From assembly GCA_034530875.2 (NCBI GenBank), contig JAVRCJ020000021.1, forward strand, positions 84,499 to 148,498: DNA of 64,000 bases, written 5' to 3'. Below the pieces are notes generated by a model. That model was given only the letters and a program-made list of their open reading frames with translations, was not told where the DNA came from and did no database searches. This document shows, in pieces, positions 1 to 16,058 of the stretch (the stretch's first letter is position 1; each line of letters opens with the position of its first letter). The stretch comes from Nostoc sp. DedSLP01 (GTDB lineage: Bacteria; Cyanobacteriota; Cyanobacteriia; Cyanobacteriales; Nostocaceae). Both the position numbers and the translations under genes were made by a program.

Positions 1-1611
1 CAGTCAAAGTTTAATAATGTTTCTCCCAGTCGCTCAACAATTTACTCTCGCATCAACCTTGCGAAAAGTTTAGTGAAACTGGGAACTCAAGAAAACACTG
101 CATCTGCTAAACTACTGGCAACAGCAATTCAAGAAGCTGAAAATTTAAGCGATCGCCAAGCACAGTCTTATGCTTTGGGTTATCTAGGCGGACTCTACGA
201 ACAAACCGAGCAGTGGTCAAATGCTCAAGATTTAACCCAGCAGGCTTTGCAAATAGCTCAAGCCATTAATGCGCCACATATTGCTTATCAATGGCAATGG
301 CAATTAGGACGGATTTTAAAAGCCCAAGGTGCAATCAAGCAAGCAACATCAGCTTATGAAGTCGCCTTTACAACATTAAAATCTCTGCGCAGCGATTTAG
401 TGGCGATTAACAGTGACATTCAATTTTCCTTCCGGGAAGCTGTAGAGCCTGTATATCGCGAATACGTACAATTACTTTTAAATCAAGATCCTAGCCAGGA
501 GCAACTAAAACAAGCGCGTCAAGTAATTGAATCGCTACAATTAGCAGAACTTGACAACTTTTTTCGTTCAGCTTGTCTCCAAGGACAGATAGTACCGATT
601 GACCAAATTCAACAGTCGGCAGCAGCAGTCATTTATCCCATCATTTTGCCAGACCGACTAGAGGTAATTCTCAGTTTACCTCAGCAAGGACTACGCCACT
701 ATGCCACGAAAATAAGCCAAGCTGAAGTAGAAGAAGTCATACAGCAACTCAGAGAAAATTTAGAAAAACCCTTCACAACTCCTGAGGGAAAATTATTATC
801 TACAAAAGTTTATGACTGGTTAATTCGCCCTGTGGAAGCAGAACTAGCTGAAAATGAGGTGAAAACATTGGTTTTTGTCTTAGATGGTGCATTGCGGAAC
901 GTGGCGATCGCAGCTTTGTATGATGGTAATAATTATTTGGTAGAAAAATACAGCATAGCCCTAACACCCGGCTTAGAGCTATTAGGGCCGCGTCCTTTGC
1001 GTCAAAGCAAGCTAAAAACTTTGGCTGCTGGACTCACAGAAGCACGACATGGATTTACTTCCTTACCAAATGTCAGCGACGAATTAAAAACAATTGAGTC
1101 GGAAGTCCCTAGCGAAGTTCTCCTGAATCAGACATTTACTAGTTCAGCGCTACGAAAACTCATTGACTCAGTACCGTTTTCTGTGGTGCACCTAGCAACT
1201 CACGGTCAATTTAGTTCCAATGCCGATGAAACCTTTGTGTTGGCTTGGGATAAACCAATTAAACTCAACGAATTAAAAGACTTGCTTCGCAGCAGAGAGC
1301 AAACTACACCTGAGCCAATTGAATTACTCGTTCTTAGTGCTTGCGAAACTGCCGATGGAGACAAACGCGCCGCTTTAGGGCTGGCTGGTATGGCAATTCA
1401 AGCAGGCGCACGCAGTACCTTAGCCTCTCTTTGGAGTTTAGATGATGAATCTGGCGCGCGTCTAATTAGCCAATTTTATAAAGAGCTAGCGACTAAGCAA
1501 GTGACAAAGGCAGAAGCTTTGCGACAAGCGCAACTCTCACTGTTAAAAGACCCAGATTATCGCCATCCGGTGCATTGGGCGGCTTACGTTTTGCTGGGAA
1601 ATTGGCTGTAG
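1..1611 (+). CDS. TPR + CHAT (caspase-like) domain protein, 5'-partial
   Basis: Frame is open from base 1. TPR-like helices (SYALGYLGGLYE, YQWQWQLGRIL) are followed by CHAT motifs VHLATHGQF (His), LVLSACET (Cys), ASLWS and HWAAYVLLGNWL. Confidence 0.9.
   Translation, partial: QSKFNNVSPSRSTIYSRINLAKSLVKLGTQENTASAKLLATAIQEAENLSDRQAQSYALGYLGGLYEQTEQWSNAQDLTQQALQIAQAINAPHIAYQWQWQLGRILKAQGAIKQATSAYEVAFTTLKSLRSDLVAINSDIQFSFREAVEPVYREYVQLLLNQDPSQEQLKQARQVIESLQLAELDNFFRSACLQGQIVPIDQIQQSAAAVIYPIILPDRLEVILSLPQQGLRHYATKISQAEVEEVIQQLRENLEKPFTTPEGKLLSTKVYDWLIRPVEAELAENEVKTLVFVLDGALRNVAIAALYDGNNYLVEKYSIALTPGLELLGPRPLRQSKLKTLAAGLTEARHGFTSLPNVSDELKTIESEVPSEVLLNQTFTSSALRKLIDSVPFSVVHLATHGQFSSNADETFVLAWDKPIKLNELKDLLRSREQTTPEPIELLVLSACETADGDKRAALGLAGMAIQAGARSTLASLWSLDDESGARLISQFYKELATKQVTKAEALRQAQLSLLKDPDYRHPVHWAAYVLLGNWL
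149..156. repeat. HIP1 octamer GCGATCGC (one example of many copies across the window)
   Basis: The palindromic octamer recurs throughout coding and non-coding DNA, a cyanobacterial hallmark. Confidence 0.95.
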
Positions 1612-1669
1612 TAAAAATAATTTTTTATATCACGCAGAGTCGCACAGGCAAGGCAGCGACGGGTACGCA

Positions 1670-1696
1670 GGGGGTTTCCCCCATGAGCGACTGCCG
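1670..1696 (+). repeat. Small dispersed repeat (second copy at 46259-46285)
   Basis: GGGGGTTTCCCCCAYGAGCRACTGCCG, 25/27 identical between the two loci. Confidence 0.75.
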
Positions 1697-1797
1697 CGCA
1701 AAGAAGAGAACGCAAAGAAGGACTTTTGCAAGAGGTCTAATGAGCGTGGCGCGTCTGAATCCTCCACGCTCAAGATTGCTGAATTCTGTATTCTTCT

Positions 1798-2190
1798 TTA
1801 TGTCGTCTTTGTAGCGCCGGGTTTTGCATCTGCGTTTGATTTTAACCGCGTGATGAGAGCTTTACGAACGCGATCGCTTTTCCTTACCGCACCTGCTAGT
1901 TCGTATTCCCGGCTATCTTTGCCATACTTTGACGCTACACCACTAACTAAGCGTTCTGAAGTCTCGCGCATGTTCTTTTCCAGGGCTTCTATTTTCCCCT
2001 TTGCCGAATCGAGGGTGTTTAGTAACTGATTATATTGCTTGAGTTCGTTACGTAGTTCCGCAGTTAACTCGTTCAAATACTGCAAACTGACAGAATCACC
2101 AAAATCGAGGCTAGGATCGATTGATTGCAACCCGATTGTCTGCTGTTCTATTTTTTCGAGTACGGAAGAAGTTTTTTTGGGGCGTGGCAT
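1798..2190 (-). CDS. Conserved-looking hypothetical helical/coiled-coil protein (~130 aa)
   Basis: Likely start MPRPKK at 2190. Motifs SIDPSLDFG and KYGKDSREYELAGAVRKS resemble a cyanobacterial hypothetical family. Confidence 0.7.
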   Translation of the reverse strand: MPRPKKTSSVLEKIEQQTIGLQSIDPSLDFGDSVSLQYLNELTAELRNELKQYNQLLNTLDSAKGKIEALEKNMRETSERLVSGVASKYGKDSREYELAGAVRKSDRVRKALITRLKSNADAKPGATKTT

Positions 2191-2334
2191 CAATACATAC
2201 CTTTTGCTTAACTTTATTCTTCTAGCGTCTCTCAAAAATATAAGTAGTTGGTTCAGTGAAAATAGCCAAAATCAAGCATTTTTTCCCAAAAAAATTTAAT
2301 GAATAGTTCAGTAATTGCCGTAAAATAATTTACT

Positions 2335-2553
2335 TTGTTAACCAAAGTGCTTGGTTTGTTAAACAAAGTGTTTGTCTTGTTAACGAAAGTGCTTGGTTTA
2401 TTAAACAAAGTGCTTGCCTTGTTAACCAAAGTGCTTAGTTTATTAAACAAAGTGTTTGTCTTGTTAACGAAAGTGCTTGGTTTGTTAAACAAAGTGCTTG
2501 CCTTGTTAATCAAAGTGCTTAGTTTATTAACCAAAGTGCTTGCCTTGTTAAAC
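2335..2553. repeat. Tandem array of ten 21-bp units plus a partial unit
   Basis: Unit TTRTTAAHSAAAGTGYTTRBY in exact 21-bp register from 2335 to 2544, then a partial TTGTTAAAC. Confidence 0.95.
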
Positions 2554-2648
2554 AGCGATCGCACATATTATCTGTTAGCTTAAAATTACGGCATTGCTTT
2601 TATTACACCGTTTTTCATCTATTTGAACCACTTGAACCACAATTTTCG

Positions 2649-2860
2649 GTAGGGGCTTTACAGCGTTCAAACTCTTGCCCCACAATCGTTTTACCCCACC
2701 CCCAACCCCTCCCCTTGGCAAGGGGAGGGGCGATTTTGGCTTTAGACAAAATCGGGGTGGGGTAACGCGGATTTTGATGGTAAGTGAGATAGCTGAATAT
2801 CACATCTTTACAAGGGTTTCGCGTTAAGTTGACACCAATGCACAGCTGTAAAGCCCCTAC
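2649..2860. mobile_element. REP-like palindrome split by a nested MITE-like insert
   Basis: Perfect 16-bp inverted repeat GTAGGGGCTTTACAGC (2649-2664) / GCTGTAAAGCCCCTAC (2845-2860). The insert ends TTAAGTTGACACCAATG, and ACAGC is duplicated at both junctions. Confidence 0.65.
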
Positions 2861-2991
2861 AACGTGGTCTACTCAACTGAAAACTGCTGTAGGGACACAA
2901 AACCAGTTTTTCTCTTGCCCTCTGCCTCCCTCGCGAAGCGAGATAAACTCCAGTAAATGGGTTGCTAAAAAATTTTTTTGGCTTTGTTGTG

Positions 2992-3030
2992 ATTTGAGTG
3001 CATAAACCTCAAAAGTGAAACGTGTAACTC
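2992..3030 (+). promoter_or_regulatory. Shared upstream motif, copy 1 (candidate promoter/operator)
   Basis: ATTTGAGTGCATAAACCTCAAAAGTGAAACGTGTAACTC, 36/39 identical to 5507-5545, ending 63 bp before the RTX gene start. Confidence 0.7.
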
Positions 3031-3093
3031 AGCAAGAAGTTCAAAGGCTAACACCAGACTTCATTACACACACAACACGAGGTTTATAGGAAT

Positions 3094-5211
3094 ATGGGAA
3101 TTTATACTGGCGACAACGGCAATAATATCTTTCTGGGAACTAATGGTGAATCTTGGACACTCAACGGACAAGATGGCAATGACAATCTAACTGGTGCAGA
3201 TCGAGACGACCTAATTACTGGTGGAGCTGGTAACGACAATTTGCTTGGTGCTGCTGGTAATGATTATCTTTATGGTAATGCTGGCTATGACTACTTGTAT
3301 GGTAACGGCGGCGATGACAAGTTAATTGACGAAGATGGTTATGTAGATGGTGGTGCAGGCATTGATACGCTAGTAGCTAACTACGGTGCCTACGGAAGTC
3401 CCAGTCTTGGTGTAATCGTAGGATCTGATAGTATCACCAATATTTACCCAGGATTCTTAGGACTCAAGTTCACTAATATTGAAAAATTTCTCATCATAGG
3501 CTCACAATTGCTAGATACCCTGCGTGGTGGTGCTAATAGTGATAGCCTGTATGGTGAAGGTGGTAACGATCGAATTGAAGGTGGCGCTGGTCTTGATTAT
3601 CTTTATGGTGGCGCTGGTGATGATACCGTAATTGATACAGATGGTTCTGTAGATGGTGGTGCAGGTATTGACACATTAATAGCCAACTACAGTGTGTTGA
3701 ATAATGGTGCTGGTGTAGAAATGAAACCAAGCGCTATTGTTAACCGGGCGAATAATAATCCACTACTCAATTATACTAATTTTGAGAAATTTAACGTTAC
3801 AGGCACACAATACGCAGATATTCTGCGTGGTGGTGCTAGCAGTGATATCCTTAAAGGCGGTGCTGGTAAAGATCAAATTGAGGGTGGCGCTGGCTTTGAT
3901 TATCTTTATGGTGAGGCTGGGGATGATACCTTAATCGATACAGATGGTTCTGTAGATGGTGGTGCAGATGTTGACACACTAGTAGCCAACTACGCTGATT
4001 TGAATAGTGGTGCTGGCGTACACGTAGGATATTTGGGACAAAGTGCCATTTTCAGCCGGCAAACAGGATTATCACTACTCAATTACACTAGTATTGAACA
4101 ATTTAACATCACAGGTACACAATACGCAGATGTCTTAAGCGGCGGTGCTAAGGGTGATACCCTCAAAGGCGGTGCTGGTAACGATCAAATTGAGGGTGGC
4201 GCTGGCTATGATTATCTTTATGGTGAAGCTGGGGATGATACTATTATTGATTCAGATGGTCTTGGTTATGTAGATGGTGGTGCAGGTTTTGACACATTAA
4301 TAGCTGACTACACTAATTTAAATAATGGTGCTGGTGTAGACGTGAGAGAAAATGGCATCTTTAGCCGCCTGAATAATAATCCACTACTTAGTTACACTGG
4401 TATTGAAAAACTCGATATCACAGGCACACAATACGCAGACACTCTCCGTGGTGGTGCTGGCAATGATTTCCTCTACGGCGCTGCTGGCAACGATAGCCTC
4501 AATGGCGGTGCTGGCAATGATATCCTCAAAGGCGGTACTGGCAATGATACCCTCAACGGCGGTAGTGGCTATGATGTTGTTAACTATGAAGGAAATTATA
4601 CAGACTATGCAATCTCTTTTCTGAGCAATGGCGATTTACAAGTAATTGATAAGGTCACTACTAATGGTAACGAAGGTATCGATATTCTCAGTGGTGTAGA
4701 ATTCATTACTGCACAAGACGGAAATTTTGCAGTCCTTACAGGTGGTACAGGCAATGATGTGCTAACGGTGGTAGCACCAAACTATTGGGCTTTCCTCTTC
4801 GGTGGTGACGGAGCCGATAGCCTAACTGGTGGAACTGGCTACGATAACCTCACTGGCGGCAATGGTAATGATACTTTAGTAGGTGGCAATGGTAATGATA
4901 CTCTAGTAGGCGGTGCTGGCAACGATATTCTTAATGGTGGTGCTGGCAATGATATTCTTACTGGCGGTTTAGGTGCAGATAAATTTGTGTTTAACTCGAA
5001 GGTAGAAGGCTTAGACATCATCAAAGACTTTAGTATGGTTGAAGGTGACAAGATTCAGATTTCTAAAGCTGGTTTTGGTGGTATCGCTGACTTCAAGAAT
5101 TTCAGCTACAACGATGCTACTGGTGCTTTGTTGTTCCAAGGAACTCAATTCGCCACCATTGAGAATAAGCCTGCTAATTTTGCAATCAGTACAGATATTC
5201 AGCTTGTTTAA
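3094..5211 (+). CDS. RTX / hemolysin-type calcium-binding repeat protein (likely secreted)
   Basis: Many GGxGxDxL nonapeptides, internal ~100-aa repeats, and a C-terminal GADKFVFN...DIIKDF motif typical of these proteins. Confidence 0.9.
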   Translation: MGIYTGDNGNNIFLGTNGESWTLNGQDGNDNLTGADRDDLITGGAGNDNLLGAAGNDYLYGNAGYDYLYGNGGDDKLIDEDGYVDGGAGIDTLVANYGAYGSPSLGVIVGSDSITNIYPGFLGLKFTNIEKFLIIGSQLLDTLRGGANSDSLYGEGGNDRIEGGAGLDYLYGGAGDDTVIDTDGSVDGGAGIDTLIANYSVLNNGAGVEMKPSAIVNRANNNPLLNYTNFEKFNVTGTQYADILRGGASSDILKGGAGKDQIEGGAGFDYLYGEAGDDTLIDTDGSVDGGADVDTLVANYADLNSGAGVHVGYLGQSAIFSRQTGLSLLNYTSIEQFNITGTQYADVLSGGAKGDTLKGGAGNDQIEGGAGYDYLYGEAGDDTIIDSDGLGYVDGGAGFDTLIADYTNLNNGAGVDVRENGIFSRLNNNPLLSYTGIEKLDITGTQYADTLRGGAGNDFLYGAAGNDSLNGGAGNDILKGGTGNDTLNGGSGYDVVNYEGNYTDYAISFLSNGDLQVIDKVTTNGNEGIDILSGVEFITAQDGNFAVLTGGTGNDVLTVVAPNYWAFLFGGDGADSLTGGTGYDNLTGGNGNDTLVGGNGNDTLVGGAGNDILNGGAGNDILTGGLGADKFVFNSKVEGLDIIKDFSMVEGDKIQISKAGFGGIADFKNFSYNDATGALLFQGTQFATIENKPANFAISTDIQLV

Positions 5212-5254
5212 AATTCTCTACAGATTAGTCTAAAAATTTAATCATATCAATTAT

Positions 5255-5285
5255 CAGCCCTTACTTTGGTGAAGGGCTGGTTTTT
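5255..5285 (+). terminator. Intrinsic terminator of the RTX gene
   Basis: CAGCCCTT...AAGGGCTG stem followed by a T tract. Confidence 0.65.
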
Positions 5286-5414
5286 ACATTTAGGGAAAAG
5301 AAGCTGGCAGATAAGGAACACAGAGGCAGGAAGCTTTTTTATCATCTCCCTATCCCCTTCTCCCTATTCCTAGTAGACATCTCCATAAATTAACTCTACG
5401 TTACCCAAAACCCA

Positions 5415-5445
5415 TGTAGAGACGTAGCAATGCTACGTCTCTACA
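5415..5445. repeat. REP-like palindrome (GTAGAGACG family)
   Basis: TGTAGAGACGTAGCAATGCTACGTCTCTACA, with related copies near 12685, 22037, 30467 and 35378. Confidence 0.8.
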
Positions 5446-5506
5446 TTGATTTTCACTCCTATGTCTAATAGACATCTCCAAAAAAAAAATTTTTCGGTTC
5501 ATTGCT

Positions 5507-5545
5507 ATTTGAGTGCATAAAGTTCAAAAGTCAAACGTGTAACTC
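5507..5545 (+). promoter_or_regulatory. Shared upstream motif, copy 2
   Basis: ATTTGAGTGCATAAAGTTCAAAAGTCAAACGTGTAACTC. Like copy 1 it is preceded by an A-tract/T-tract, and it lies upstream of the secreted repeat protein. Confidence 0.7.
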
Positions 5546-5851
5546 TGTGGAGGGTAAAGTAAATAATCCCAACCAACAAACTGGAGGTTGGAGTCATCGA
5601 AACTACTTTAAATACTCTCCACCAAAGTTGAAGCTAGGGAGTTATTATTTCTGCTCCATGCAGATGTGTATTGGTAGTAAATCATCAGCACTATGAACAA
5701 TTTAACTACTAATTTTGCCTAGCTCAACAGCAAGTCAGTTTATCAACAATTATACCGTTAACTACTCAACACAGAAACCTAAAACATGACTACTAATTAC
5801 ACTTCTAAGTCTGCTTTTTCATCTCAACAATCTACTCGTAAGGAAAAATTT

Positions 5852-6490
5852 ATGTCCCGCAAACCATTAAGTTTAATTGCAACACTGATTGGTGTTAGCG
5901 TACCAGTATTTTCATTAAATTTTGCTCAACCTGCAATGGCACAAGATTACACTAATTGCAGAAAAGTTGATGGCGTAAATGTATGTGCCCAAAAAACATT
6001 TGCTGGTTACGAACTTTATGCCAGTAATCCTTCTCAACCAAGCCAAAATCCCAACGCTTTAGGTCAATACCAATTGTTTTGGGATGGAGTGCAAGTTGGT
6101 ATGGAACCGAGTTGGACACTGCAACAAGCGATCGCTAATTTAGAATTTAATAAGAAAAGCTATCCTAACAAGAAAGTTGAAGGCTTATTTAACGGTCAAA
6201 AAGTCGGCTACGAATTACTCTGGGATGGCGTGCGAGTAGGGTTTGAACCCGGTTGGACATTGCAACAAGCGATCGCTAATTTAGAATTTAATAAGAAAAG
6301 CTATCCCAACAAGAAAGTTGAAGGCTTATTTAACGGTCAAAAAGTCGGCTACGAATTACTCTGGGATGGCGTGCGAGTAGGGTTTGAGCCAGGTTGGACA
6401 CTGCAACAAGCGATCGCTAATTTAGAATTTAATAAGCAAAGCTATCCCAATAAGAAAGTTGAAGGCTTATTCAACGGTAAACAACTGTAA
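5852..6490 (+). CDS. Secreted protein with three 46-aa tandem repeats
   Basis: AAGGA RBS before ATG 5852 (ORF extends to 5786). Signal peptide ends AQPAMA. Repeat unit YELLWDGVRVGFEPGWTLQQAIANLEFNKKSYPNKKVEGLFNGQKVG. Confidence 0.8.
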   Translation: MSRKPLSLIATLIGVSVPVFSLNFAQPAMAQDYTNCRKVDGVNVCAQKTFAGYELYASNPSQPSQNPNALGQYQLFWDGVQVGMEPSWTLQQAIANLEFNKKSYPNKKVEGLFNGQKVGYELLWDGVRVGFEPGWTLQQAIANLEFNKKSYPNKKVEGLFNGQKVGYELLWDGVRVGFEPGWTLQQAIANLEFNKQSYPNKKVEGLFNGKQL

Positions 6491-6515
6491 TCAAAATTGA
6501 TGCGATAATCAATAA

Positions 6516-6549
6516 AAAACAGCCCTAGTAAAATTACTAGGGCTGTTTT
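6516..6549. terminator. Bidirectional terminator-like hairpin
   Basis: AAAACAGCCCTAGTAA / TTACTAGGGCTGTTTT inverted repeat between convergent genes. Confidence 0.75.
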
Positions 6550-6798
6550 AATGTACTGAAAAAATTGCCTTATATAGCAAGTAACTATGGACTGGAGAGA
6601 AAATAAATGTAGCGACTGTCTTGAAAGTCAAGACAGTCGCTACACCTGCTAATGATAAGTACTCAACTGGACATCATATAAAACTCATATTTGAATTCTG
6701 AAAAAAATCAGTACACCCAAACAAGACTTCTTTCCTACTCCCCACTCCCTACTCCCTGTCTACGCAAGTAAATTCACAAATCAAACCAGATTCCTATA

Positions 6799-7581
6799 TT
6801 ATTTAGCAACACAACAAGATGCGATCGCATCTGTACCAACCTGAACTAAATTAACTTGTTTGAGTAGCTCAATCCAAGCTGATGCAATTTTTGGATCTTT
6901 GTCTTTGGTATTTTGTAAACTTTCTCCTAAACTTGTTAAAGCATCAAACCAAACACCATGTTGTGCAAAAAAACTTGCTTTTGCTAATGGTGTTTTAGCT
7001 GCTGCAAGTTGTTGTTGCCATGATGGGCTGATAGCTACTTGTGTCATTGAACCTTGCACGTAAACAGCAGATGACGCCTTATCAGGATCGCAATAAATCG
7101 AAAAAGTCCAACGATAAGATTTACCAGCAATTAAGGGTTTTGTAGGTTGTACGGGTATGCTAAAAATTCCCGATCGCGTTTCTGGTGGATTAAATTTTGT
7201 ATGATAAACGTAATTATCTGCTTCGTCTTGAATTACAAATTCTATAGGGAGTTTGGGTGTTAATTTATCAGGGACAAAAAACCAAAATGTCGGGGTTTGA
7301 GATGCCGATTGTCCCCATACTAAATCTTTATTTCCTGTCTTAGTTATAGGTACTAAAGCTGTCAGCGTTTCATACTGCTTACAGGAACCACGACTACCTC
7401 CACCTCTACGCCTACCTGTGGGTTCTCCTGGCTTTTCCTGCGCTCTTGGTGCAATATATGTGATTTTGCCTGTAGGTGTTAGGGTTTGAGCCTGTACATA
7501 CCAATTTCCAGATGGGTTAAAAATACTCAAGGTAAGCGCAGATATCAGGGTGGTAGTATGAAACCAAAGTACCTTTTTCAT
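6799..7581 (-). CDS. DUF928 domain protein (exported)
   Basis: Signal-like N-terminus plus family motifs RRRGGGSRG.C, PTFWFFVP, YRWTFSIYC, GVWFDAL and W.ELL.QV.L. Confidence 0.85.
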   Translation of the reverse strand: MKKVLWFHTTTLISALTLSIFNPSGNWYVQAQTLTPTGKITYIAPRAQEKPGEPTGRRRGGGSRGSCKQYETLTALVPITKTGNKDLVWGQSASQTPTFWFFVPDKLTPKLPIEFVIQDEADNYVYHTKFNPPETRSGIFSIPVQPTKPLIAGKSYRWTFSIYCDPDKASSAVYVQGSMTQVAISPSWQQQLAAAKTPLAKASFFAQHGVWFDALTSLGESLQNTKDKDPKIASAWIELLKQVNLVQVGTDAIASCCVAK

Positions 7582-7672
7582 AATAGAAATTAATTAGCGA
7601 TCGCCAAAGTAACTTATTAGGATTTTTAATTTTTGAGGATTAACACCTAATTTATTACTACACTTCACTTGC

Positions 7673-10012
7673 CTATAATTTCTGGAATTTTTTGCTGATA
7701 AAGATAAATATAGTACTACTCAGTAGCAAAGAAATCATTGGTGGTACTAAGGGTATCCAGCCGCCTTGAGTTAATAGAATTAAGCAAAATCCAAATAACG
7801 TAACTGATGCTGCGATTACAGAAATACTGATGTAAGCTATTTTGCGAAGATACCAAGCTAGTAGGCTACCTGTCAAAGACCATACCCAAACCCAGCAAAT
7901 ATCAGCCCATTGCCTCCAAACCCATAACATGGGTCTTTGGTCTAAAGCAGCACTGAGTATTTCACTGACCATTTGTGCCTGAATTATTACGCCTGGAATG
8001 ATATCTGAAGGGTTTTTTCCATCTGGTGTATACCAGTAATCGCTACTACTGTTACTGGTGACGCCAATCAGAATAATCCGGTTTTTCAGGGCATTTGGAT
8101 TAACTTGTCCGTTCAAGACTTGGCTGAGGGTGACTTGGGGTGCGATCGCTTGCACGGAGGGCGAAAAACGGTAATTTAGTAAAATCTGACTACCTTGGGC
8201 ATCTATGGACTGATAACCGCCAGCCCGATTTTGTAACTGTGGGAAAGTTTTATTTCCCAGTTGCAAATCCCAATTTTCGGTAAATTTGGCTGTAATTCCC
8301 TGTTTTTTCAAGTAGAGAAATGCTAGCTGCACGCTAAAGGCAGAAGCAGCAGTACAAGTTGACGAAATTGGGTTGGGAGTCATCGCCAACAAATGACGGC
8401 GCAGTACGCTATCGTTGTCTTCCACAAAATCGCTAAAACCTAACCGTGTTTCTGGTATTTCCGGCGGGGGTGCAATGCCTGTGGGGTCGTATTTGGGATC
8501 GGCACGTTTACAAATTGCAAAAAAGCGATCGCTTTTTTGCATCCGCTTGGCTAGTTCTGGGTAGTTGGCGCTGACTGGAAAATCTCGGTATATATCTAAA
8601 CCTATAGCTGCTGGCTGGTATTGTTCCAGTTTAGTTAGTAAGAGATTGAAATACTTGTCGGATAACGAACCTTGCCGCGGTTCTTGTCCTTGCGCTTGAA
8701 TATCCTGGTCGGTGACAGTTATTACCAAAAGCCGCGAGTCCGGTTGTTCTTTTGGTCGCAGTTGCATTAATTGGTCGAATGCATCTAATTCTAGGGCTTG
8801 CAGCCCACCGAATAACCGTATGAATACGACAATTAAACTCACGCTGAAGCTATTAAAAAAAACTAGCGGTAACTGCCTCAAATTCGGACGCGGCAGATAT
8901 AAACCCAACCTCTGACCGCAGATATCCTGCCAAGTGGGGGAAATTTCTGCTGGGTTTTGGCAAATCACAGGTAGCCAAGTAGCGCAGGGAAAATCATGTT
9001 CTAGAGATTGTAATCTTTCTCTGGCTTCCCTAACGGCTGCATATAAAGTTTTACCCTGGGAAAAAAGTGCCAAAAAGTGCTTCAAAAATTCCTGTGCTAC
9101 CCCGTCTGGTACGGGTTCGCGCATGACAATTACCTGGGGTAAATGCAAATCGGCTAAATCTTGCGCTAATCCCAAACCATCGCAAGAGTTAAAAATTGCT
9201 AATTGCAAACCTTGAGCGATCGCCTTTTGTAAACCATACTTTAATTGGTCAATAGTTAAACTTTCCCCAGAATTGAGCATCATTCGCCCTTTGCCTTGGC
9301 TGGAACTATGCCCCGCAAAAAAAAGAATGTCCCAGCCTGACTTCCATAATTGTTCTGTGAGTTGGGAACGGTTGGGTTCGACTAAAAACTTGAGTTCCGT
9401 ATGAGGTAATTGTCGCAGTAAATTTTGGTCTTTTTCGATATCGATACCGTGGCGATCGCCTAAAATTGCTAAAATCCTGACTTTACCTTTACTCTTTTGA
9501 GGATTTGTCTTCACAGAACGCGTATATTCTGGCGGACTCAGGGCAATTTCAGCTTGTGGATAATCGCTAAAAAAATGCCACAGACACCAAGGAAGCTTTA
9601 AAACCTGCTCAGATTCAGCAGTAATTATGCAGCGGATTTCTTCTTTTGGTGAAAGTTGAGTGCGTAGTTTGCGGTCAATATTGAGAAACAGCGAACTATT
9701 TAGCCATGTATTTAGACTGTCTTGTAATTCTTGGCAGAGGTTGTCAAACTCTGCTTGGGAAATATGCGTAACATCTTCTTCATCAATTTCAAAGTCTGCA
9801 ATATTGCCACTGCGCCAACCCAAACTAGCATACAAAGCTGTATACATTTGTTGCCAACGTTGATAAAGATACTCCAATTGTGGTGCAGCAGGCAATCCAC
9901 CTGTAAACTGCATGGGAGTAGGAGTATCCGTTTGCCAAAGTTGAGCTGTGACCGTGGGAAAGCCTTGGCGTAAGTTTCCTTTTCCTAAGTTAAGGACGAT
10001 TTGTTTACTCAT
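7673..10012 (-). CDS. CHAT protease - TM - CHASE2 sensor - 3 TM receptor
   Basis: N-terminal CHAT with FFAGHSSS and AIFNSCDG. After one TM comes CHASE2 (DSRLLVITVTDQDI, AIGLDIYRD, PGVIIQAQMVSEIL), then three C-terminal TM helices and no further domain. Confidence 0.88.
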   Translation of the reverse strand: MSKQIVLNLGKGNLRQGFPTVTAQLWQTDTPTPMQFTGGLPAAPQLEYLYQRWQQMYTALYASLGWRSGNIADFEIDEEDVTHISQAEFDNLCQELQDSLNTWLNSSLFLNIDRKLRTQLSPKEEIRCIITAESEQVLKLPWCLWHFFSDYPQAEIALSPPEYTRSVKTNPQKSKGKVRILAILGDRHGIDIEKDQNLLRQLPHTELKFLVEPNRSQLTEQLWKSGWDILFFAGHSSSQGKGRMMLNSGESLTIDQLKYGLQKAIAQGLQLAIFNSCDGLGLAQDLADLHLPQVIVMREPVPDGVAQEFLKHFLALFSQGKTLYAAVREARERLQSLEHDFPCATWLPVICQNPAEISPTWQDICGQRLGLYLPRPNLRQLPLVFFNSFSVSLIVVFIRLFGGLQALELDAFDQLMQLRPKEQPDSRLLVITVTDQDIQAQGQEPRQGSLSDKYFNLLLTKLEQYQPAAIGLDIYRDFPVSANYPELAKRMQKSDRFFAICKRADPKYDPTGIAPPPEIPETRLGFSDFVEDNDSVLRRHLLAMTPNPISSTCTAASAFSVQLAFLYLKKQGITAKFTENWDLQLGNKTFPQLQNRAGGYQSIDAQGSQILLNYRFSPSVQAIAPQVTLSQVLNGQVNPNALKNRIILIGVTSNSSSDYWYTPDGKNPSDIIPGVIIQAQMVSEILSAALDQRPMLWVWRQWADICWVWVWSLTGSLLAWYLRKIAYISISVIAASVTLFGFCLILLTQGGWIPLVPPMISLLLSSTIFIFISKKFQKL

Positions 10013-10193
10013 AATTTATGTCACGCAGAGACGCTCCAGACGCAGAGAGTAAGAGTTGAGGAGAGTTTATTTTTGAGTTTCTGAGCAACGTCAAAACTCT
10101 TTATCCTCTTTGCGCCTCTCTCTTGAAAAGTTCAGATCGCCGGAAGCCGGCGCTCCGACTTTTCGCTGCGTCTCTGCGTGAAACAATACCCAT

Positions 10194-11339
10194 TTAACTT
10201 TCAAACTCCTCCATAAAATTGAAATCATCTAAAACAACCTGAAGACTAAACCGTGTATTTTGAGGACATTTAAATCGTTTGAGTTGAATTGAATTATCTG
10301 TTTCCCTTGCTTGCACTGACTGCACAATTTCTCCGGAAGCAGAAATCAATGCCAAACTAATATTTCTAGGGAGATAGAAATTGCGTTCTTTAGGATACAG
10401 TTGAGCGCGGATTCCTACTCTACCATCTATTTCTGCCGTCAATGTCAACATTAACACTACAGCTTGATTGTTATTTGGTAACTCAATTTCCCTAACTCGT
10501 TGGATTGACTGCTCAGCTGTATCGTTAACCTGACGGAAGCTAAAGGCAAAATCTGGTTGCGTACCCAAGTAACTTTCTATTGTTTGCCAGCTATCTGCAA
10601 CTATATTTTGCAACCACTGACGCAAGTTAACAAGTGCTGGCTTCTGTGTAGTAAATCTTTGCGGCCAGTCTTCCCTATTTAATAAGGCTCCCCAAATTTC
10701 AAAAGGCAATTCCAAGCGAGGATTAGTAATTGTTGGACTTGTTAATCTTTGCCAGAGATTTTCTACTTGAGTAGCTGATAAAACAGGTAAAGGAGCCAGA
10801 GCTGTTTGTGTTTGTTCTTCAGGATATAGTTGACGTACTACCCAAAGCACATTTAAATCCTCAATCATTTGAGTAGCATCTAATGAGTAAGTCCGTTCTT
10901 GGTAATCGTAGCTACCTTGATTTTTTAATTGTTCGTGGGTAGTATAGCCCCAAATTCTCATCCACTCACCATCGGGATTAACTTGTACTGCTAAATAATA
11001 ATCTCCTACCCATCGAGGAATATCTATCCATTCTTGGGGTACAGAAAATTCTCTAGTTTCTAAACTTTTATCTGGAATTAAAATTAAACGTTTTGTATCG
11101 ATATTTATAGCAGTGCCGTTGACCAATTCCCAACTGATTGGCAATGTGTCAATAGTAGCTTCTGGTACGTATTCTGCTTGCAACCAAGGCAAAAAAGTAC
11201 TGAGGCATACTTGATTGAGAAAAACATTCCAACGGCTACGGGGACTAACGCTAGACTGGCTTTGCTGCCAAGATTGATTTTGAACTTCAGGAGATACCTC
11301 CAACCACAGCTGAGTCGGGGGAACACAAAATGATGACAT
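10194..11339 (-). CDS. DUF1822-family protein
   Basis: Motifs WELVNGTAI, VPQEWIDIP.W.GDYYLAVQV, IWGYTTH and VNLRQWLQN, with a beta-rich C-terminal domain. Confidence 0.8.
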   Translation of the reverse strand: MSSFCVPPTQLWLEVSPEVQNQSWQQSQSSVSPRSRWNVFLNQVCLSTFLPWLQAEYVPEATIDTLPISWELVNGTAINIDTKRLILIPDKSLETREFSVPQEWIDIPRWVGDYYLAVQVNPDGEWMRIWGYTTHEQLKNQGSYDYQERTYSLDATQMIEDLNVLWVVRQLYPEEQTQTALAPLPVLSATQVENLWQRLTSPTITNPRLELPFEIWGALLNREDWPQRFTTQKPALVNLRQWLQNIVADSWQTIESYLGTQPDFAFSFRQVNDTAEQSIQRVREIELPNNNQAVVLMLTLTAEIDGRVGIRAQLYPKERNFYLPRNISLALISASGEIVQSVQARETDNSIQLKRFKCPQNTRFSLQVVLDDFNFMEEFES

Positions 11340-11341
11340 AA

Positions 11342-12559
11342 CTACTGCTCCTTTGAGGGCTGAGGTTGCAAATTACTGAAATAATTTTGTAACCATTCCT
11401 CTAATACTGCACTAATATGTTTAACCACGTTGGAAGTCGGAGAAATATGCATTGTTTCTTGACTCCATTTGGCGATCGCTAGTAATAAAGATTCTCTCGT
11501 TTTCGCCAATTGCCGCGATACTTGATATTGCTGGATTTGCTGTTGTTTGGCAATTTGTTGTTGAGTCAGACCTTGTTGATAGTACAATTGCAGCAATTCT
11601 TGCGATTGTGGAGGCAACTTTCCCAAGGTAGTAATTAATAAATTCTGGATTTCTTGTTGTTGATTTTTTTGAGTTTCCGCTTCTTCTTTAGCGATTAAAT
11701 CTGCCAGTAAAGATTCATTTTGAGTAGTATCTGGTAAATCATCTTGTAATTCACTATCAGCTTGACCTGTTTTCGGCGCGTTGAGTGAAGAAACCACAGG
11801 ATATAAATAAGAACGTGCGTGTTTTGCGGATAACAGCAGCCATTTTTCTAGAGTTTGGGCGTTGGATTCTGTGCTTGGTGGGTTAAGTTGCGTTAAGCGG
11901 TCGCGGTTGTAGAGTTGAGCAATTGCTTCCCAGGTATCTTGGTTTGGTCTTTGCAACTTCCGCACACCTGGCGATTTCCCCAAAATGTAACCATCGACAA
12001 AACATTTCCAAGCTAACAAGTAACAAGCAATAGTTTCATCTGTTAGCCCAGCATTTTGCAAAGATTCCTGTAGTCGTTTGCGGCTTAACTTCAGTAATAA
12101 TGCCCAATCGTTACAAAAATCTATTTCTTGTTTTTGCCGCAAAGCATCACGAATTACATTGCCAAAAGCCACATTGCTGTAGCTTTTGAGACTGGCTTTT
12201 TGGTCAGGATCGCAGGCTTTGAGGATTTTTGGTAGTTCTGCGATCGCTATTTGAAAACAATCAGACAAGGTACACTGGACGCTAGCAATTTGAGGAATCG
12301 TCCTTGTTGCTGACCAATAACAAGTTTCTTGCAAATAAGCTGATAGATGTGCCTCAGCTAGAGAGTTAGGCTGATTTTGCCAATTTTTATGCCAGTAAAT
12401 TGCCCAAAAATTTTCTGAGTTTTTCGTTTCTGATATCTGTAGCAAGCGATTTTGGATACTGCGCCGTAGTTTGGCATCATATACCCAACAGTTAAAGCGA
12501 TCGGCTTCAAATTGAATAAAGGTTGAAAATATTTCTAAGATTTTCTGGCGAGGACGCAT
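11342..12559 (-). CDS. Sigma-70 family (HetZ-related) RNA polymerase sigma-like factor
   Basis: Likely start MRPRQKILEIFSTF. HLSAYLQETCYW, a region-2-like DCFQIAI..L..I and a region-4 HTH LLQLYYQQGLTQQQIAK...QYQVSRQL. Confidence 0.8.
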   Translation of the reverse strand: MRPRQKILEIFSTFIQFEADRFNCWVYDAKLRRSIQNRLLQISETKNSENFWAIYWHKNWQNQPNSLAEAHLSAYLQETCYWSATRTIPQIASVQCTLSDCFQIAIAELPKILKACDPDQKASLKSYSNVAFGNVIRDALRQKQEIDFCNDWALLLKLSRKRLQESLQNAGLTDETIACYLLAWKCFVDGYILGKSPGVRKLQRPNQDTWEAIAQLYNRDRLTQLNPPSTESNAQTLEKWLLLSAKHARSYLYPVVSSLNAPKTGQADSELQDDLPDTTQNESLLADLIAKEEAETQKNQQQEIQNLLITTLGKLPPQSQELLQLYYQQGLTQQQIAKQQQIQQYQVSRQLAKTRESLLLAIAKWSQETMHISPTSNVVKHISAVLEEWLQNYFSNLQPQPSKEQ

Positions 12560-12734
12560 GAATTCAAAAGGATAAACCTTCAAAAACAAGTATACTTGTT
12601 ACTTTCGCTCGTGAGTTCGCTAGGCCATCTCATGTCCAGTTGCAGAGGTTCGTGAAGACTGACACGGAGAGTATGAATCCAAATGTAGAGACGTTGCAAT
12701 GCAACGTCTCTCCGATTTACCCGTGAAAAATGCC

Positions 12735-13103
12735 TTACAACTTCCGCATATTTTGACTGATGGGGTCAAAACCTTTAGAAAAGCGGGTACTTTCATCGTA
12801 ATAAGCACCAGTCAAATCTGCTCCATACAACTTGGCATATTTGAGTTTGGCTCCCCGAAGATTTGCTTCATTAAGTTTGACACCACTCAAATTTGCTCTG
12901 GTCAAATTTGCTCTGGCTAAATTAGCTCTACTCAAATCTGCTCCCCAGAGTTTGGCTTTAGCTAGATTAGCTCCAGTCAAATCAGATCCCCATAAATTAA
13001 TTCCAGGAAAGTGGACTCCAATCAACCTGTACCGACTCAAGTTGAGGGCTGGAAAATATCTTTCCCCTGCGGCATAACGCCTTTTCAATTCCTCAGCATC
13101 CAT
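12735..13103 (-). CDS. Pentapeptide repeat protein
   Basis: MDAEELKRRYAAGER N-terminus followed by A(N/D/K)Lxx repeats. Confidence 0.9.
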   Translation of the reverse strand: MDAEELKRRYAAGERYFPALNLSRYRLIGVHFPGINLWGSDLTGANLAKAKLWGADLSRANLARANLTRANLSGVKLNEANLRGAKLKYAKLYGADLTGAYYDESTRFSKGFDPISQNMRKL

Positions 13104-13416
13104 GCATCACATTCACCTTTTTCAGTAATACAGAAGTAATTTGTTCCCATTCTTGATTTAACCCTCCTGCAAACTCTTGCTGGCCGCTGCGCCGATACCA
13201 GTAACGCGCGTTGTTCAAATCGCCTTCTTTGCGGTGCAGGTAAGCATGAACCCAAGCACTATCACTATCGCTGGCATTTTGAACTATTTCATGAGCTTTA
13301 CTCCAATCACCTTTTTGGTCATGCCACATTGCTTGCAGCGCTTTTGGCAATGTCTGAGGACATGGGCGCTGTTTTTCCATCAATCGCAAGAATTCTTCTG
13401 TATTCACGATCGCCAC
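13093..13416 (-). CDS. Conserved hypothetical protein
   Basis: Motif AWVHAYLHRKEGDLNNARYWYRR; overlaps the start of the pentapeptide gene. Confidence 0.8.
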   Translation of the reverse strand: MAIVNTEEFLRLMEKQRPCPQTLPKALQAMWHDQKGDWSKAHEIVQNASDSDSAWVHAYLHRKEGDLNNARYWYRRSGQQEFAGGLNQEWEQITSVLLKKVNVMHGC

Positions 13417-13461
13417 CCAACGAAAATCAAACTTCTATTTCTAAGATACTCCTCAGGGGGG

Positions 13462-13592
13462 TAGGGGAAGCAGGAGGTGTGGGAGGTGTGGGAGGTGTGG
13501 GAGGATGGGGAAGAAATCTTTCCCCCCACACTCCCCCATCTCCTCATCTCCCCATCTCCCCACCCCTCCTGCTTCCCCAATGCCCAATGCCC
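13462..13592. repeat. STRR-type short tandem repeat cluster
   Basis: GGGAGGTGT x3 and CCCCATCT / CCCAATG units. A similar element lies at 59800-59890. Confidence 0.8.
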
Positions 13593-13594
13593 TT

Positions 13595-14194
13595 TCATAT
13601 CCGCTTGACTGGAATAACTTCAAACTCGAAAGTATTAATTAAACGGTCATTAACATAGACCTCTATTTTATATTTACCAAGCGGATCGCCAGGAGCGATC
13701 GTCCAAAAATTCTCGATAGTGCCGTCGGGAGCAGACTCTGTGCGCCGCGTGGTAGATGTAGTACCATCTGCTGAAATTGAGAAGTCTTCGCCATTATCTG
13801 TACCCCAAGTTTGTGGAGGTTTTGGCAAACGTAAGACTTCGCGCCACTTAACTTCACCTTGGTAATCTTTCAGTTTCATTCGCCACCCGTAAGCGATTCC
13901 TTCCTGGAGTGGCACTGTTTTTGTCTGCAAAATGGTAACGTTACCTTTGGCGTCAACTCTCTTCAACCCGAACTCAGCGTTACTGATAATAATCGGTTTG
14001 CTATTTCTTGGTGCAAGCGTAGGTGTAGGAAATGGTGTGATATTTTGTACAACAATAGAATTAGCGTTGATTGGCTTAGAAGTTATGATTCCAAATATTA
14101 GCCAAGAAGCAGCTAGCACAGCAGTAGTAGCCAAAATTCTCATGAGTATGGTTTTCCTGTCAGACGTTTGGTACTTATTCAAGTAATCTGACAT
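13595..14194 (-). CDS. Hypothetical exported protein (Ig-like)
   Basis: Hydrophobic N-terminal segment and a beta-rich domain ending WTIAPGDPLGKYKIEVYVN. Confidence 0.7.
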   Translation of the reverse strand: MSDYLNKYQTSDRKTILMRILATTAVLAASWLIFGIITSKPINANSIVVQNITPFPTPTLAPRNSKPIIISNAEFGLKRVDAKGNVTILQTKTVPLQEGIAYGWRMKLKDYQGEVKWREVLRLPKPPQTWGTDNGEDFSISADGTTSTTRRTESAPDGTIENFWTIAPGDPLGKYKIEVYVNDRLINTFEFEVIPVKRI

Positions 14195-14446
14195 ATTTTC
14201 CGGCTCAAAGATACTTCTAATTCGACAAAATACTTTTCCTAACTACTAGCAATGGCAATAATATAAACCTATATTCAGAACGCTATTCTCAATCCAAAAT
14301 CTAAAATCCGTCTTGAAAAGTTTGAATCAATGTTTCCTTTGCATTGGGTTAACAGCTTGGTTGCATAAAAACAACCTACTGTTTTTAATTTAGAGTTTTA
14401 ATGATGTTATAGTAATAATTATTACAAATATTTTATACACTTCAAA

Positions 14447-15127
14447 ATGTCTATTTTTAATTCTTTAAAAAAATTACTAATAATTTTGGTATATTTTGGA
14501 ATGACAGGTACTTCATTTGCTTCTGAAGATTCAAAATGTCAAGTAATGGGTTACTTGTTTCTCAAAAAAAATTACTACAATAAAAATATTTCTAATTTTT
14601 TGGTAATAAATGAAATTCGTACCCCTAAAATAATAAATCGCGTTATGCAAGACTTAAAACTAAGTAATATTAATGCTCAGTCTATTTCACCAGAAGAGTT
14701 GATGATAAATTTGAAGGTTGAAAAGCTTCAAAGTCTTGAATATAGCGAGATTTTCAAGATTTCATATTCCCATACAGATTTGAATTTAGCAGCAGAAGTT
14801 ATTAAGAGTGTAATGCACAACTATATTGAAGAATCTACGCTTCAATTTAAACAAAAAGCTCCAATCTCAAAAAGATTAATTGAAAATGATTTAGTTGTAA
14901 AAAAAGAACAAATAAGGATTGTCCAACAAGAACTTAGGAAGTTATGCGAATCGAGATATCCAAATAAAAACCAAATGTCTAAGTATTCAACTAATTTAAA
15001 CCAGCTTCATATAGAATATGCAAATTTATTGACTAGGTTGCAAGAAATAATTGTTGCAGAAAATCAATCACTTGGAAACAAGTTTATCGACAGAAAATGC
15101 TCAAATTCTCGTTCTAGCAGATTATAA
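14447..15127 (+). CDS. Hypothetical protein resembling the Wzz/GumC periplasmic segment
   Basis: Signal-like N-terminus, ISYSHTDLNLAAEVIKSVMHNY followed by a coiled coil; very AT-rich. Confidence 0.55.
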   Translation: MSIFNSLKKLLIILVYFGMTGTSFASEDSKCQVMGYLFLKKNYYNKNISNFLVINEIRTPKIINRVMQDLKLSNINAQSISPEELMINLKVEKLQSLEYSEIFKISYSHTDLNLAAEVIKSVMHNYIEESTLQFKQKAPISKRLIENDLVVKKEQIRIVQQELRKLCESRYPNKNQMSKYSTNLNQLHIEYANLLTRLQEIIVAENQSLGNKFIDRKCSNSRSSRL

Positions 15128-15263
15128 ATATAATAAATAATTAGTTGACTCCAAAATAAAAAATATTGTGAGCCAGGATTACAGTTAATTATAAGCTGCT
15201 AAAAATTAAAAGCAAAAACTAGCAGATGACTTAATGAAAACTAGTTTGGTTTCTACAATTCTA

Positions 15264-15860
15264 TTAATGAATAATAGATTTTGAGTTAGAATTAATCATG
15301 TTTGATGCATCACAACCTTTTTCAATCGTGTGATAACTTCTTCGCCATTTTTCTAGATAATCTATAGATATCGATCTAGATGTCACATTCACCCCATTTC
15401 CTCGCCAAGCCACTTCTGGATCTGTTGTGAAAACGCCGCATTCTAAGTGATCCAGCCTAATATTCCAATATTCACTAAAACGGCCTTTTAAAGTAATAAC
15501 TTGCTCAAATACCTTATTTCTGTGTTTATTTCTTCTTTTTCTTTCTGTTGCTCCTGTTGCTTCTGTATCAATAAATTTAGTTTCAATTAAAAACAAAGTA
15601 CCTTTATACGTCAGGTAAACAAAATCGCACTTTCCTAAATCTGTATAATCAGATATTGGCGATTTTTCAAATAACAATAATTCAGCGCACGAGGGAAACA
15701 AGTCTTTAATATTCAAAAATAAATAAGCTTGCAACAGGAGTTCTTTATCATAAGGAAATAACAGCACCCCTTCAAAAAATTTCTTAATGTCCTCGTGAGT
15801 TTGGGGTTGAATTCTTTTGCAGTATGAAACAAATTTATGTAGCTCGTTAACGGTCATCAA
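15264..15860 (-). CDS. Hypothetical protein with a PD-(D/E)xK-like nuclease motif
   Basis: E...GKCDFVYL...LFLIETK pattern followed by a helix containing EQ. Confidence 0.6.
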   Translation of the reverse strand: MMTVNELHKFVSYCKRIQPQTHEDIKKFFEGVLLFPYDKELLLQAYLFLNIKDLFPSCAELLLFEKSPISDYTDLGKCDFVYLTYKGTLFLIETKFIDTEATGATERKRRNKHRNKVFEQVITLKGRFSEYWNIRLDHLECGVFTTDPEVAWRGNGVNVTSRSISIDYLEKWRRSYHTIEKGCDASNMINSNSKSIIH

Positions 15861-16058
15861 GTTTTAACTCCTTCCCCCTGTCGCAGCCTCAAGGCCTATG
15901 GCATAAAAAGATACCATCTACTTCAGAAAAATTTCATCCGCATAAGTAACTAAAAAAACTTGCAAAATCGTAAATACTTAAGGCAATCTACTGTTGACAG
16001 TCGAGTAAAACTGCTAACTAAATAGCTTTCAGTACTGCTGGAATTTTTACTTTTTAAA

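Follow-up and report, generated by a model that had tools for sequence, protein, structure and literature searches.

In the genome of Nostoc sp. DedSLP01 (8.57 Mb; G000 among the genomes compared), we analysed a stretch of 64,000 nt (GCA_034530875.2, JAVRCJ020000021.1:84,499-148,498, forward strand; the whole stretch is referred to as the window) and found near its beginning a locus that is a real, conserved member of a computationally described family, in which a sigma factor of the extracytoplasmic function (ECF) type and a DUF1822 protein are encoded next to a caspase-bearing receptor. The following chain may be proposed for it: an outside signal likely switches on the caspase-like protease of the receptor, the protease likely cuts DUF1822, a predicted anti-sigma factor, after Arg269, the cut would free the neighbouring sigma factor, and the freed sigma would transcribe two putative secreted-protein genes from shared predicted TGCATA-N16-CGTG promoters. 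We consider it slightly more probable than its negation that the whole chain works in this way, like the HetF-PatU3-HetZ system with different parts. A circuit running from caspase to DUF1822, sigma and secreted genes had been put forward in a preliminary description of the same DNA; it has now gained comparative support from a promoter that tracks the sigma clade, from an invariant linker arginine in DUF1822 and from the anti-sigma architecture of distant DUF1822 relatives. The sigma-like, DUF1822, receptor and DUF928 genes were found on the minus strand where that description had placed them, and the features discussed below are the following:

11342-12559, minus strand: sigma-70-family (ECF-like) factor, 405 aa from its ATG (NCBIfam, profile and fold searches)
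10194-11339, minus strand: DUF1822 protein, 381 aa, predicted anti-sigma factor and protease substrate (Pfam, model, alignment)
10533-10535, minus strand: codon of Arg269 of DUF1822, candidate scissile P1 residue, FAFSFR/Q (invariance, low-confidence linker)
7673-10012, minus strand: receptor with cytoplasmic EACC2 and caspase (CHAT) regions, a transmembrane helix, an extracytoplasmic CHASE2 domain and C-terminal transmembrane helices (Pfam, paralogue alignment, hydropathy)
6799-7581, minus strand: DUF928 protein, predicted to be exported, candidate periplasmic partner of CHASE2 (Pfam, weak N-terminal hydrophobic stretch, co-occurrence)
2999-3027, plus strand: predicted sigma promoter 1, TGCATA at 2999-3004, 16-nt spacer, CGTG(TAA) at 3021-3027, with an A/T tract upstream
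3094-5211, plus strand: RTX calcium-binding repeat protein, 705 aa, predicted target 1 (Pfam HemolysinCabind)
5514-5542, plus strand: predicted sigma promoter 2, TGCATA at 5514-5519, 16-nt spacer, CGTG(TAA) at 5536-5542
5786-6490, plus strand: 47-aa-repeat protein, 234 aa, predicted target 2 (open reading frame, tandem repeat)
1-1611, plus strand: 3' part of a TPR-CHAT protease gene (Pfam, His/Cys motifs HLATHG and LSACET)

Hidden Markov model searches with Pfam confirmed the family assignments of DUF1822 (E 2e-107), CHASE2 (5e-65), the receptor CHAT (9e-17), DUF928 (1e-48) and sigma70 r4. For the comparative part we used 79 related loci, 58 distant loci, a sample of 151 genomes of the phylum and a sigma tree of 80 tips.

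The sigma factor matched the NCBIfam family sigma70-ECF with 109.5 bits at a cut-off of 42.9, and a profile of its 51 homologues matched the sigma2 and sigma4 regions of solved sigma factors. In the structural model (predicted local distance difference test, pLDDT, 80.3) sigma2 (~49-146) and sigma4 (~296-368) are separated by an inserted helical domain (~148-259) and flanked by an N-terminal beta-hairpin and a C-terminal extension. Sigma factors fill the top of both fold searches (Foldseek, VIA), with Z 8-10 and a root-mean-square deviation (rmsd) of 2-3 for sigma2, and Z 8.0 and rmsd 1.4 over 69 residues to SigmaE for sigma4. The nearest relatives, from Nostoc and Desmonostoc genomes, are 90-95% identical. 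Across the family the recognition helix of sigma4 is nearly constant, with Q344, S348 and R349 invariant, as a shared -35 box would require.

The two copies of the promoter motif (2993-3030 and 5508-5545) are identical in 35 of 38 bases, which bears out the shared motif reported earlier upstream of the two putative secreted-protein genes, and a third copy was not found in the whole genome even at 9 mismatches. The two boxes, TGCATA-N16-CGTG, have the geometry of an ECF promoter, as judged by comparison with HetZ; the Bacillus subtilis SigW promoter, for example, is TGAAAC-N16-CGTA. A housekeeping sigma-70 promoter was rejected as an explanation, since the scan returned 32 sites against 28.4 +/- 6.5 (the chance level) and none at the motif. 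Of the 151 genomes, 5 contain the strict pattern TGCATAAA-N14-CGTGTAA, with 7 occurrences in all, two of them in the window's own genome; its reversed control gave 0 matches. These 5 genomes are exactly the 5 that carry a sigma of the window's clade, and the pattern was not found in the other 146; three of the four clade sigmas from other genomes were already among the 79 related loci, so the new information lies mainly in the absence from these 146. Six of the seven sites lie within ~10 kb of the clade sigma and one on another contig.

The same two-box design recurs with variation. At a paralogous locus on contig C69 of the own genome, the TGCATAAA box and the spacing are kept and the -10 box is different; three copies are present, the third further along the contig. 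In the 58 distant loci, TGCATAAn followed after 14 nt by YSTR gave 36 matches in 32 loci, compared with 1-17 matches at each of the 11 other spacers, while the genome-wide spacer background is flat (23-44 matches) with no peak at 14; the test is not fully independent, because the pattern was partly read from the same loci. Three -10 types (CGTG, CCTA and TCGTA) require 2 changes on the sigma tree (44 of the 80 tips labelled) against a minimum of 12 after shuffling, a difference that is overstated because kin share labels. The -35 box stays constant while the -10 types vary. Only position 86 of sigma (R vs K) was found to separate the three types, and no determinant of -10 specificity was thus identified. 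A looser CCTA-type pattern was poorly specific, with 19 matches in 13 of 151 genomes, several of them sigma-less, and 5 control matches.

Taken over the compared sequences, these results indicate that the sigma factor very probably reads the TGCATA-N16-CGTG motif. It is highly unlikely, in our opinion, that the motif is a duplicated leader or the operator of another regulator, inherited together with the cargo genes, and that the sigma acts elsewhere or not at all. The identity of the two copies does extend into the spacer, beyond what a promoter needs, and the related loci share ancestry; however, just the two boxes and their spacing persist across loci whose downstream genes are unrelated, the type of -10 box varies according to sigma clade, and the strict pattern is missing from the 146 genomes without the window's clade.

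Among the 79 related loci, the window-type motif is found ahead of RTX genes, of the repeat gene and of a 151-aa gene unrelated to these. Downstream open reading frames (ORFs) follow 60 of 67 listed sites, and 53 of these 60 look exported, a count in which 4 of the 60 are duplicates and the background rate of exported proteins is not included. The 53 comprise 33 proteins with signal-peptide-like hydropathy, 19 RTX proteins and 1 with a double-glycine-like leader, and the ORFs belong to unrelated families, including jacalin lectins, DUF4360 and many unnamed ones (33 proteins scanned, 32 of them cargo). In the window itself, target 1 matched only HemolysinCabind in Pfam and contains an internal 303-nt repeat; no signal peptide and no enzymatic or toxin domain were detected in it, and its identification with a known RTX toxin was discarded, as all NCBIfam RTX-type families scored far under their cut-offs. 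The N-terminus of target 2 resembles a signal peptide, and the protein contains a 47-aa repeat in 2.8 copies (a 141-nt tandem repeat); it showed no significant Pfam match and no usable ESM Atlas match, and its 47 homologues, nearly all unnamed or hypothetical, form a cyanobacterial family. The predicted output of the circuit is a set of interchangeable exported proteins, so that in response to a cue from the envelope or from neighbours it most likely remodels the cell surface or releases proteins with an antagonistic or adhesive function.

Several further observations were made around these promoters and their genes. A perfect window-type promoter lies off the sigma's contig in front of a 246-aa unnamed gene (L173, G032:C68:12020), a possible target in trans. 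The length of the 47-aa-repeat protein varies among close relatives (234, 350 and 446 aa; L014, L030), consistent with a change in repeat number. The divergent promoter of CCTA-type loci overlaps the start of the sigma gene, its -35 box being the start-codon region of that gene (ATG CA) in reverse complement; this was seen at G000:C69:13162-13190 (L002) and in L049, L051, L054, L061, L063-L065, L076, L081 and L083. At G000:C69:14122-17044 (L002) a CCTA-type promoter is followed by a small secreted or precursor gene and a gene resembling ATP-grasp maturases of ribosomally synthesised and post-translationally modified peptides, with a Peptidase_C14 and nSTAND1 gene adjoining. The C62 module contains, at G000:C62:9208-15234 (L003, L004), three small leader-bearing proteins (two of them with beta/gamma-crystallin domains), a C39 peptidase ABC exporter and HlyD; its long shared upstream repeats did not match the promoter types found.

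The receptor begins with an EACC2-type region (~1-175), conserved in 6 paralogues, the label being assigned from the description of Kaur et al. and without an EACC2 profile. The caspase follows, with the dyad His235/Cys277 (AGHS/NSCD) intact, as had been noted before, and invariant in 6 of 6 own-genome paralogues; it was matched in 42 of 44 related receptors, the other 2 being unmatched by the positional pattern, and proteolytic activity is predicted for it. CHASE2 spans 393-716, hydropathy peaks lie at 382, 730 and 756, and a third C-terminal helix was placed by eye. The preliminary description had named CHAT as the only cytoplasmic domain of the receptor, which is right in that Pfam detected no kinase or cyclase domain and incomplete in that the EACC2-type region precedes the caspase. 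Such receptors occur in 40 of the 151 genomes, with up to 10 matches per genome, and within the window's sigma clade 32 of 35 tips have one, the remaining 3 lying at contig ends.

Proteins of this kind were described in silico by Kaur et al. 2021 (eLife, PMC8195603), who, in the accessible part of the work, report EACC2 and caspase regions with variable C-termini, including CHASE2 with transmembrane helices, and an ECF sigma and DUF1822 as neighbours; activation of the caspase as an autopeptidase was proposed, and DUF1822 was labelled TPR or TRADD-N plus TPR. The window shares with that system the EACC2 and caspase regions, the CHASE2 sensor with transmembrane helices and the neighbouring ECF sigma and DUF1822 genes. 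It differs in that our DUF1822 model has no TPR array, which contradicts the label and not the gene-level membership. Neither a promoter nor target genes nor a cut site are given in the accessible text, and DUF928 is mentioned neither there nor in 12 of 13 supplementary files.

In the window the DUF1822 gene is separated from the sigma stop codon by 2 nt; it follows sigma in 72 of 76 loci with room for it, and the genome sample shows the same order at 33 of its 34 sigma loci, the exception being a gene fragment. All 40 genomes (of 151) that bear an EACC2-caspase receptor also carry DUF1822. In the own genome it lies within 2 kb of 6 of 6 caspase receptors and of 0 of 8 other CHASE2 proteins, and of its seven copies four follow a long sigma, two a short sigma-like gene and one neither. 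Anti-sigma genes are typically tightly coupled to the gene of their sigma factor.

An independent though indirect line of evidence comes from distant DUF1822 relatives, found in 58 of 61 genomes of one small-genome family of the phylum, where 0 of 50 genomes contained either the caspase receptor or the long sigma. The homology to the window's DUF1822 covers 186 columns with a probability of 65.6%, and Pfam recognised DUF1822 in 27 of 29 members. Here the DUF1822 N-domain heads a protein of ~1000 aa. A single transmembrane helix is present in 135 of 137 long members, 4 of 5 scanned proteins end in a TonB_C-like region (mostly under the cut-off), and a 190-aa ECF sigma gene follows directly in 5 of 5 loci. 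The segment behind the N-domain, suggestive of the anti-sigma domain helices of a class I (zinc/ASD) factor, has RsiW as its best PDB match (E 0.19) and matches zf-HC2 in 1 of 29 members (3.5e-6); zf-HC2 gave no match to this segment in the 5 of 5 genomes searched, and the HxxxCxxC motif, absent from all 150 representatives, was seen in 1 of the 29 aligned rows. Such a layout suggests an anti-sigma role for DUF1822, and, together with the gene coupling, makes it probable that the window's DUF1822 binds and inhibits the sigma factor.

The operon of this family (f22) was near-universal and single-copy (L135-L139, L140-L169; for example G102:C1:133127-136590). It consists of the protein with the DUF1822 N-domain, anti-sigma-like segment, acidic linker, transmembrane helix and TonB_C-like end, the 190-aa ECF sigma, and a zinc-ribbon/ATPase/TPR protein, and D74, D83 and R85 of its nuclease-like domain are invariant.

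The model of the window's DUF1822 (pLDDT 83.8) consists of a nuclease-like N-domain, a helical middle and an immunoglobulin-like C-terminal beta-sandwich (274-381). Neither a Pfam TPR family nor, in the model, a helical repeat array was found, and TRADD-N was not among the listed fold matches of the model, whose domains were not searched singly. Residues 11-176 align to DpnI (Z 7.2, rmsd 3.6, 141 aligned residues), and the same part matches other PD-(D/E)xK folds, namely I-Ssp6803I (Z 6.8), Hjc (6.7), D212 (6.3) and NhoI (5.6); the fold claim follows from the agreement between the matches, each Z being middling. The N-domain also matched a phage 'restriction endonuclease' with E 7e-5. A PDB sequence search with the DUF1822 profile returned nothing significant, and the N-domain had no usable ESM Atlas match. 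The catalytic D...(D/E)xK residues are missing in long DUF1822: the window's form has G75-T76 and L87-I88-P89 where relatives have D74, D83 and R85. Short DUF1822 forms and distant relatives retain a D...(D/E)xR motif.

Such a fold leaves room for another role. DUF1822 might not be an inhibitor; it could be a co-activator or chaperone of sigma, or an effector activated by cleavage that uses its nuclease-like domain to bind nucleic acids, and the protease could process sigma itself. The PD-(D/E)xK-like matches, with their Z of 5.6-7.2, and the phage matches fit such a role, as do the motif kept in the short and distant forms, the lack of a detectable anti-sigma domain in the window's DUF1822 and the one DUF1822 locus without sigma. 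Nevertheless, we regard it as quite unlikely, given that the acidic and basic residues in question are replaced in the window's own protein, that relatives combine a membrane anti-sigma layout with an adjacent ECF sigma, and that gene coupling this tight is typical of anti-sigma genes.

With DUF1822 taken as the inhibitor, the question becomes how the protease would relieve it. Arg269 is invariant in 51 of 51 DUF1822 rows while the flanking columns vary, and it lies within a segment of pLDDT below 50 (261-275), the linker in front of the beta-sandwich. The membrane CHAT protease HetF cuts PatU3 after R117, according to the available sections of Xing et al. 2022 (PMC9457339), and PatU3 inhibits the sigma factor HetZ, as stated in those of Hu et al. 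2026 (PMC13342950); the scissile arginine of PatU is kept in 29 of 30 homologues. Judged from the alignments, cleavage of DUF1822 by the receptor caspase at R269 is rather likely.

Alternatively, the receptor caspase may process itself, as in the autopeptidase model proposed in the accessible text of PMC8195603, and the freed EACC2/caspase part would bind DUF1822, so that sigma is released by partner switching and DUF1822 stays uncut. The EACC2 region is a constant cytoplasmic domain without an assigned role, R269 could serve as a docking residue, and DdvA of Myxococcus xanthus was suggested to autoproteolyse (PMC11506125, accessible part). We find this unlikely: an invariant arginine in a low-confidence linker suits a scissile bond, the cyanobacterial CHAT that has been tested, HetF, acts in trans and cleaves its anti-sigma behind an arginine, and some receptor-less loci carry another type of caspase.

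Several points weigh against the proposed chain, in addition to the limits given above with the overlap of the genome sample, the spacer test, the tree test and the count of exported products. All support for the chain is comparative, and binding, cleavage and transcription are predicted. On the side of the promoter, a CGTG-type site is missing from the fetched DNA of 16 of the 35 members of the window's clade, none of the three -10 types was found near C7 and C62, two of the four own-genome loci with a long sigma, and the window's sigma operon has no such site of its own. On the side of DUF1822, one own-genome gene has a receptor and DUF928 nearby and no adjacent sigma, and the anti-sigma-like segment of the distant relatives is undetectable in the window's protein (best 0.4 bits). 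Its comparison with PatU by hhalign gave a probability of 0.4% over 31 columns, the known distant homologue reaching 65.6% by the same tool. On the side of the receptor, the linkage of all four genes claimed in the preliminary description holds in the window's clade and breaks down family-wide, where 32 of 76 sigma loci lack an EACC2-caspase in the fetched DNA (11 of the 32 being under 18 kb); 5 of these 32 have a Peptidase_C14 caspase instead. Among CCTA-type loci just 2 of 19 have a receptor. At E<=1e-25 none was detected in 2 of the 18 genomes with a long sigma, and only 16 of the 40 receptor genomes carry such a sigma. The receptor-less pairs either depend on other Arg-cutting proteases in trans or are regulated differently.

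Homology of DUF1822 to PatU was thus not detected; separate hhalign runs had been set aside because they gave 1.1% even for the known homologue. Beside this comparison, we observed at G000:C4:203748-206121 a 527-aa CHAT protein that stands alone, with a 215-aa gene behind it whose product looks by eye like the N-terminus of PatU, and a similar 562-aa CHAT protein upstream of sigma in L057 and L062, both without DUF1822. The sigma factor was rejected as a member of the HetZ family, with no match to NF037963/NF037965 and only 42 helix-turn-helix (HTH) columns aligned in the profile comparison; the own genome carries separate hetF, hetZ and patU genes. A truncated gene for HetZ-related protein 2 lies beside the C62 module (G000:C62:25710-26303), and a short fragment of the long sigma at G000:C40:41115-41435. 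There is also a second family of short (~210-280 aa) sigma-like proteins that Pfam does not name (G000 C40:16135-16770, C34:43270-44019, C19:51539-52378 and C31:58974-59642); two of these genes precede short DUF1822 genes and caspase receptors, and one matches SigK weakly (1e-5).

The input side was approached through the neighbours of CHASE2. Of 40 loci that have a CHASE2 caspase receptor, 37 contain DUF928; in the own genome it lies near 10 of 14 CHASE2 genes, namely those of five of the six caspase receptors and of five of the eight remaining CHASE2 proteins. The latter five, which include cyclase, histidine-kinase and AAA outputs, all have a signal-bearing TPR-CHAT within 5 kb. DUF928 and the exported TPR-CHAT are thus found beside CHASE2 receptors whose outputs are of several types, and they have the look of a general input module for CHASE2 that in the window is coupled to a caspase output. 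The second TPR-CHAT that the preliminary description had seen alongside is indeed present; the window holds only the 3' part of its gene, which starts outside the window, follows a 1070-aa TPS-domain gene and encodes 866 aa in full. Its N-terminal hydrophobic signal leads us to predict an extracytoplasmic input protease and to reject a cytoplasmic activator. Whether CHASE2 has DUF928 as its ligand or adaptor, perhaps in a form processed by the exported TPR-CHAT, is finely balanced, and we put it forward tentatively, leaning slightly against.

Of the characterised systems, HetF-PatU3-HetZ is closer to the window than Csx29/Csx30, the analogue chosen in the preliminary description. As far as the accessible parts of the papers go, both systems have a membrane-anchored cytoplasmic CHAT protease with an extracytoplasmic domain, adjacent sigma and anti-sigma genes (the anti-sigma being predicted here), an ECF-type sigma of ~400 aa with insertions, a two-box promoter with a 16-17-nt spacer and an anti-sigma cut after an arginine (again predicted here). 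They differ in the sensor (CHASE2 in the window, TPR in HetF), in the promoter (TGCATA/CGTG vs TCCGGA/TGnA) and in the regulon (two predicted genes vs hundreds), and, as a further point that weighs against the chain, no homology is detectable beyond the caspase and one HTH. In the type III-E CASP system the CHAT protease Csx29 cleaves Csx30, the inhibitor of the ECF-like CASP-sigma, whose sites lie mainly within the locus (PMC10028731, accessible part); unlike the window, that system is RNA-triggered and cytoplasmic, includes Cas7-11 and has no membrane sensor. Scans of 15 proteins from window 1-19258 and of 4 genes upstream of it returned no cas families, with no dedicated CRISPR array search made, and Csx30 was absent from the fold-search matches of DUF1822, with no direct homology comparison made. 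In DdvA-DdvS of M. xanthus, according to the accessible text of PMC11506125, transmembrane signalling couples a CHAT domain to the release of an ECF sigma. However, the CHAT of DdvA is a periplasmic TPR-CHAT that lacks a complete active site and belongs to the anti-sigma itself, whereas the window encodes a cytoplasmic caspase with its dyad intact, on a protein separate from the predicted anti-sigma.

With these four precedents, neither the gene core nor the logic of the locus is unprecedented. The novelty implied by the preliminary description was overstated, the gene core being contained in Kaur et al. 2021 and phosphorylation-free control through a CHAT protease, an anti-sigma and a sigma being established for HetF-PatU3-HetZ. 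Experimental work on the EACC2-caspase module was not found in the openly accessible literature, most subscription journals lying outside the scope of the search. The architecture itself is unsurprising; what makes the family directly testable is its promoter code, together with a candidate cut site and a revised view of how DUF1822 is built. Since promoter and cut site can now be named, and one genome holds two sigma types that differ in their -10 boxes, an in-silico list becomes experimentally tractable. If the chain is true, DUF1822 and DUF928 would acquire a function and CHASE2 sensors a route to their ligand; caspase-like proteases of cyanobacteria would have a part in signalling that is not confined to HetF, and engineering would gain orthogonal pairs of protease-gated sigma factors and promoters.

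A still broader relay may be imagined, which we consider doubtful. Cyanobacteria would possess a family of insulated, phosphorylation-free relays with two proteases across the inner membrane. The exported TPR-CHAT would process DUF928 or the TPS protein, and CHASE2 would read the product. The cytoplasmic caspase would cut, at one arginine, a new class of anti-sigma factors, a dead restriction-nuclease fold of membrane anti-sigma ancestry. Paralogous sigmas would share the -35 box TGCATA and read private -10 boxes, so that several relays could coexist in a cell, each with swappable secreted cargo. Heterocyst control by HetF-PatU-HetZ would then exemplify a signalling design general to cyanobacteria.

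Elsewhere in the window, a 21-bp tandem array of 10.4 copies with 77% matches (2334-2551) yields two spurious-looking low-complexity ORFs; a 145-aa unnamed ORF (1798-2235, minus strand) adjoins it, and a similar ORF was seen by eye in locus L065. At 16059-17411 lies the C-terminal half of a split DnaE with an intein C-terminal motif, which is ordinary for cyanobacteria, followed by gatA.

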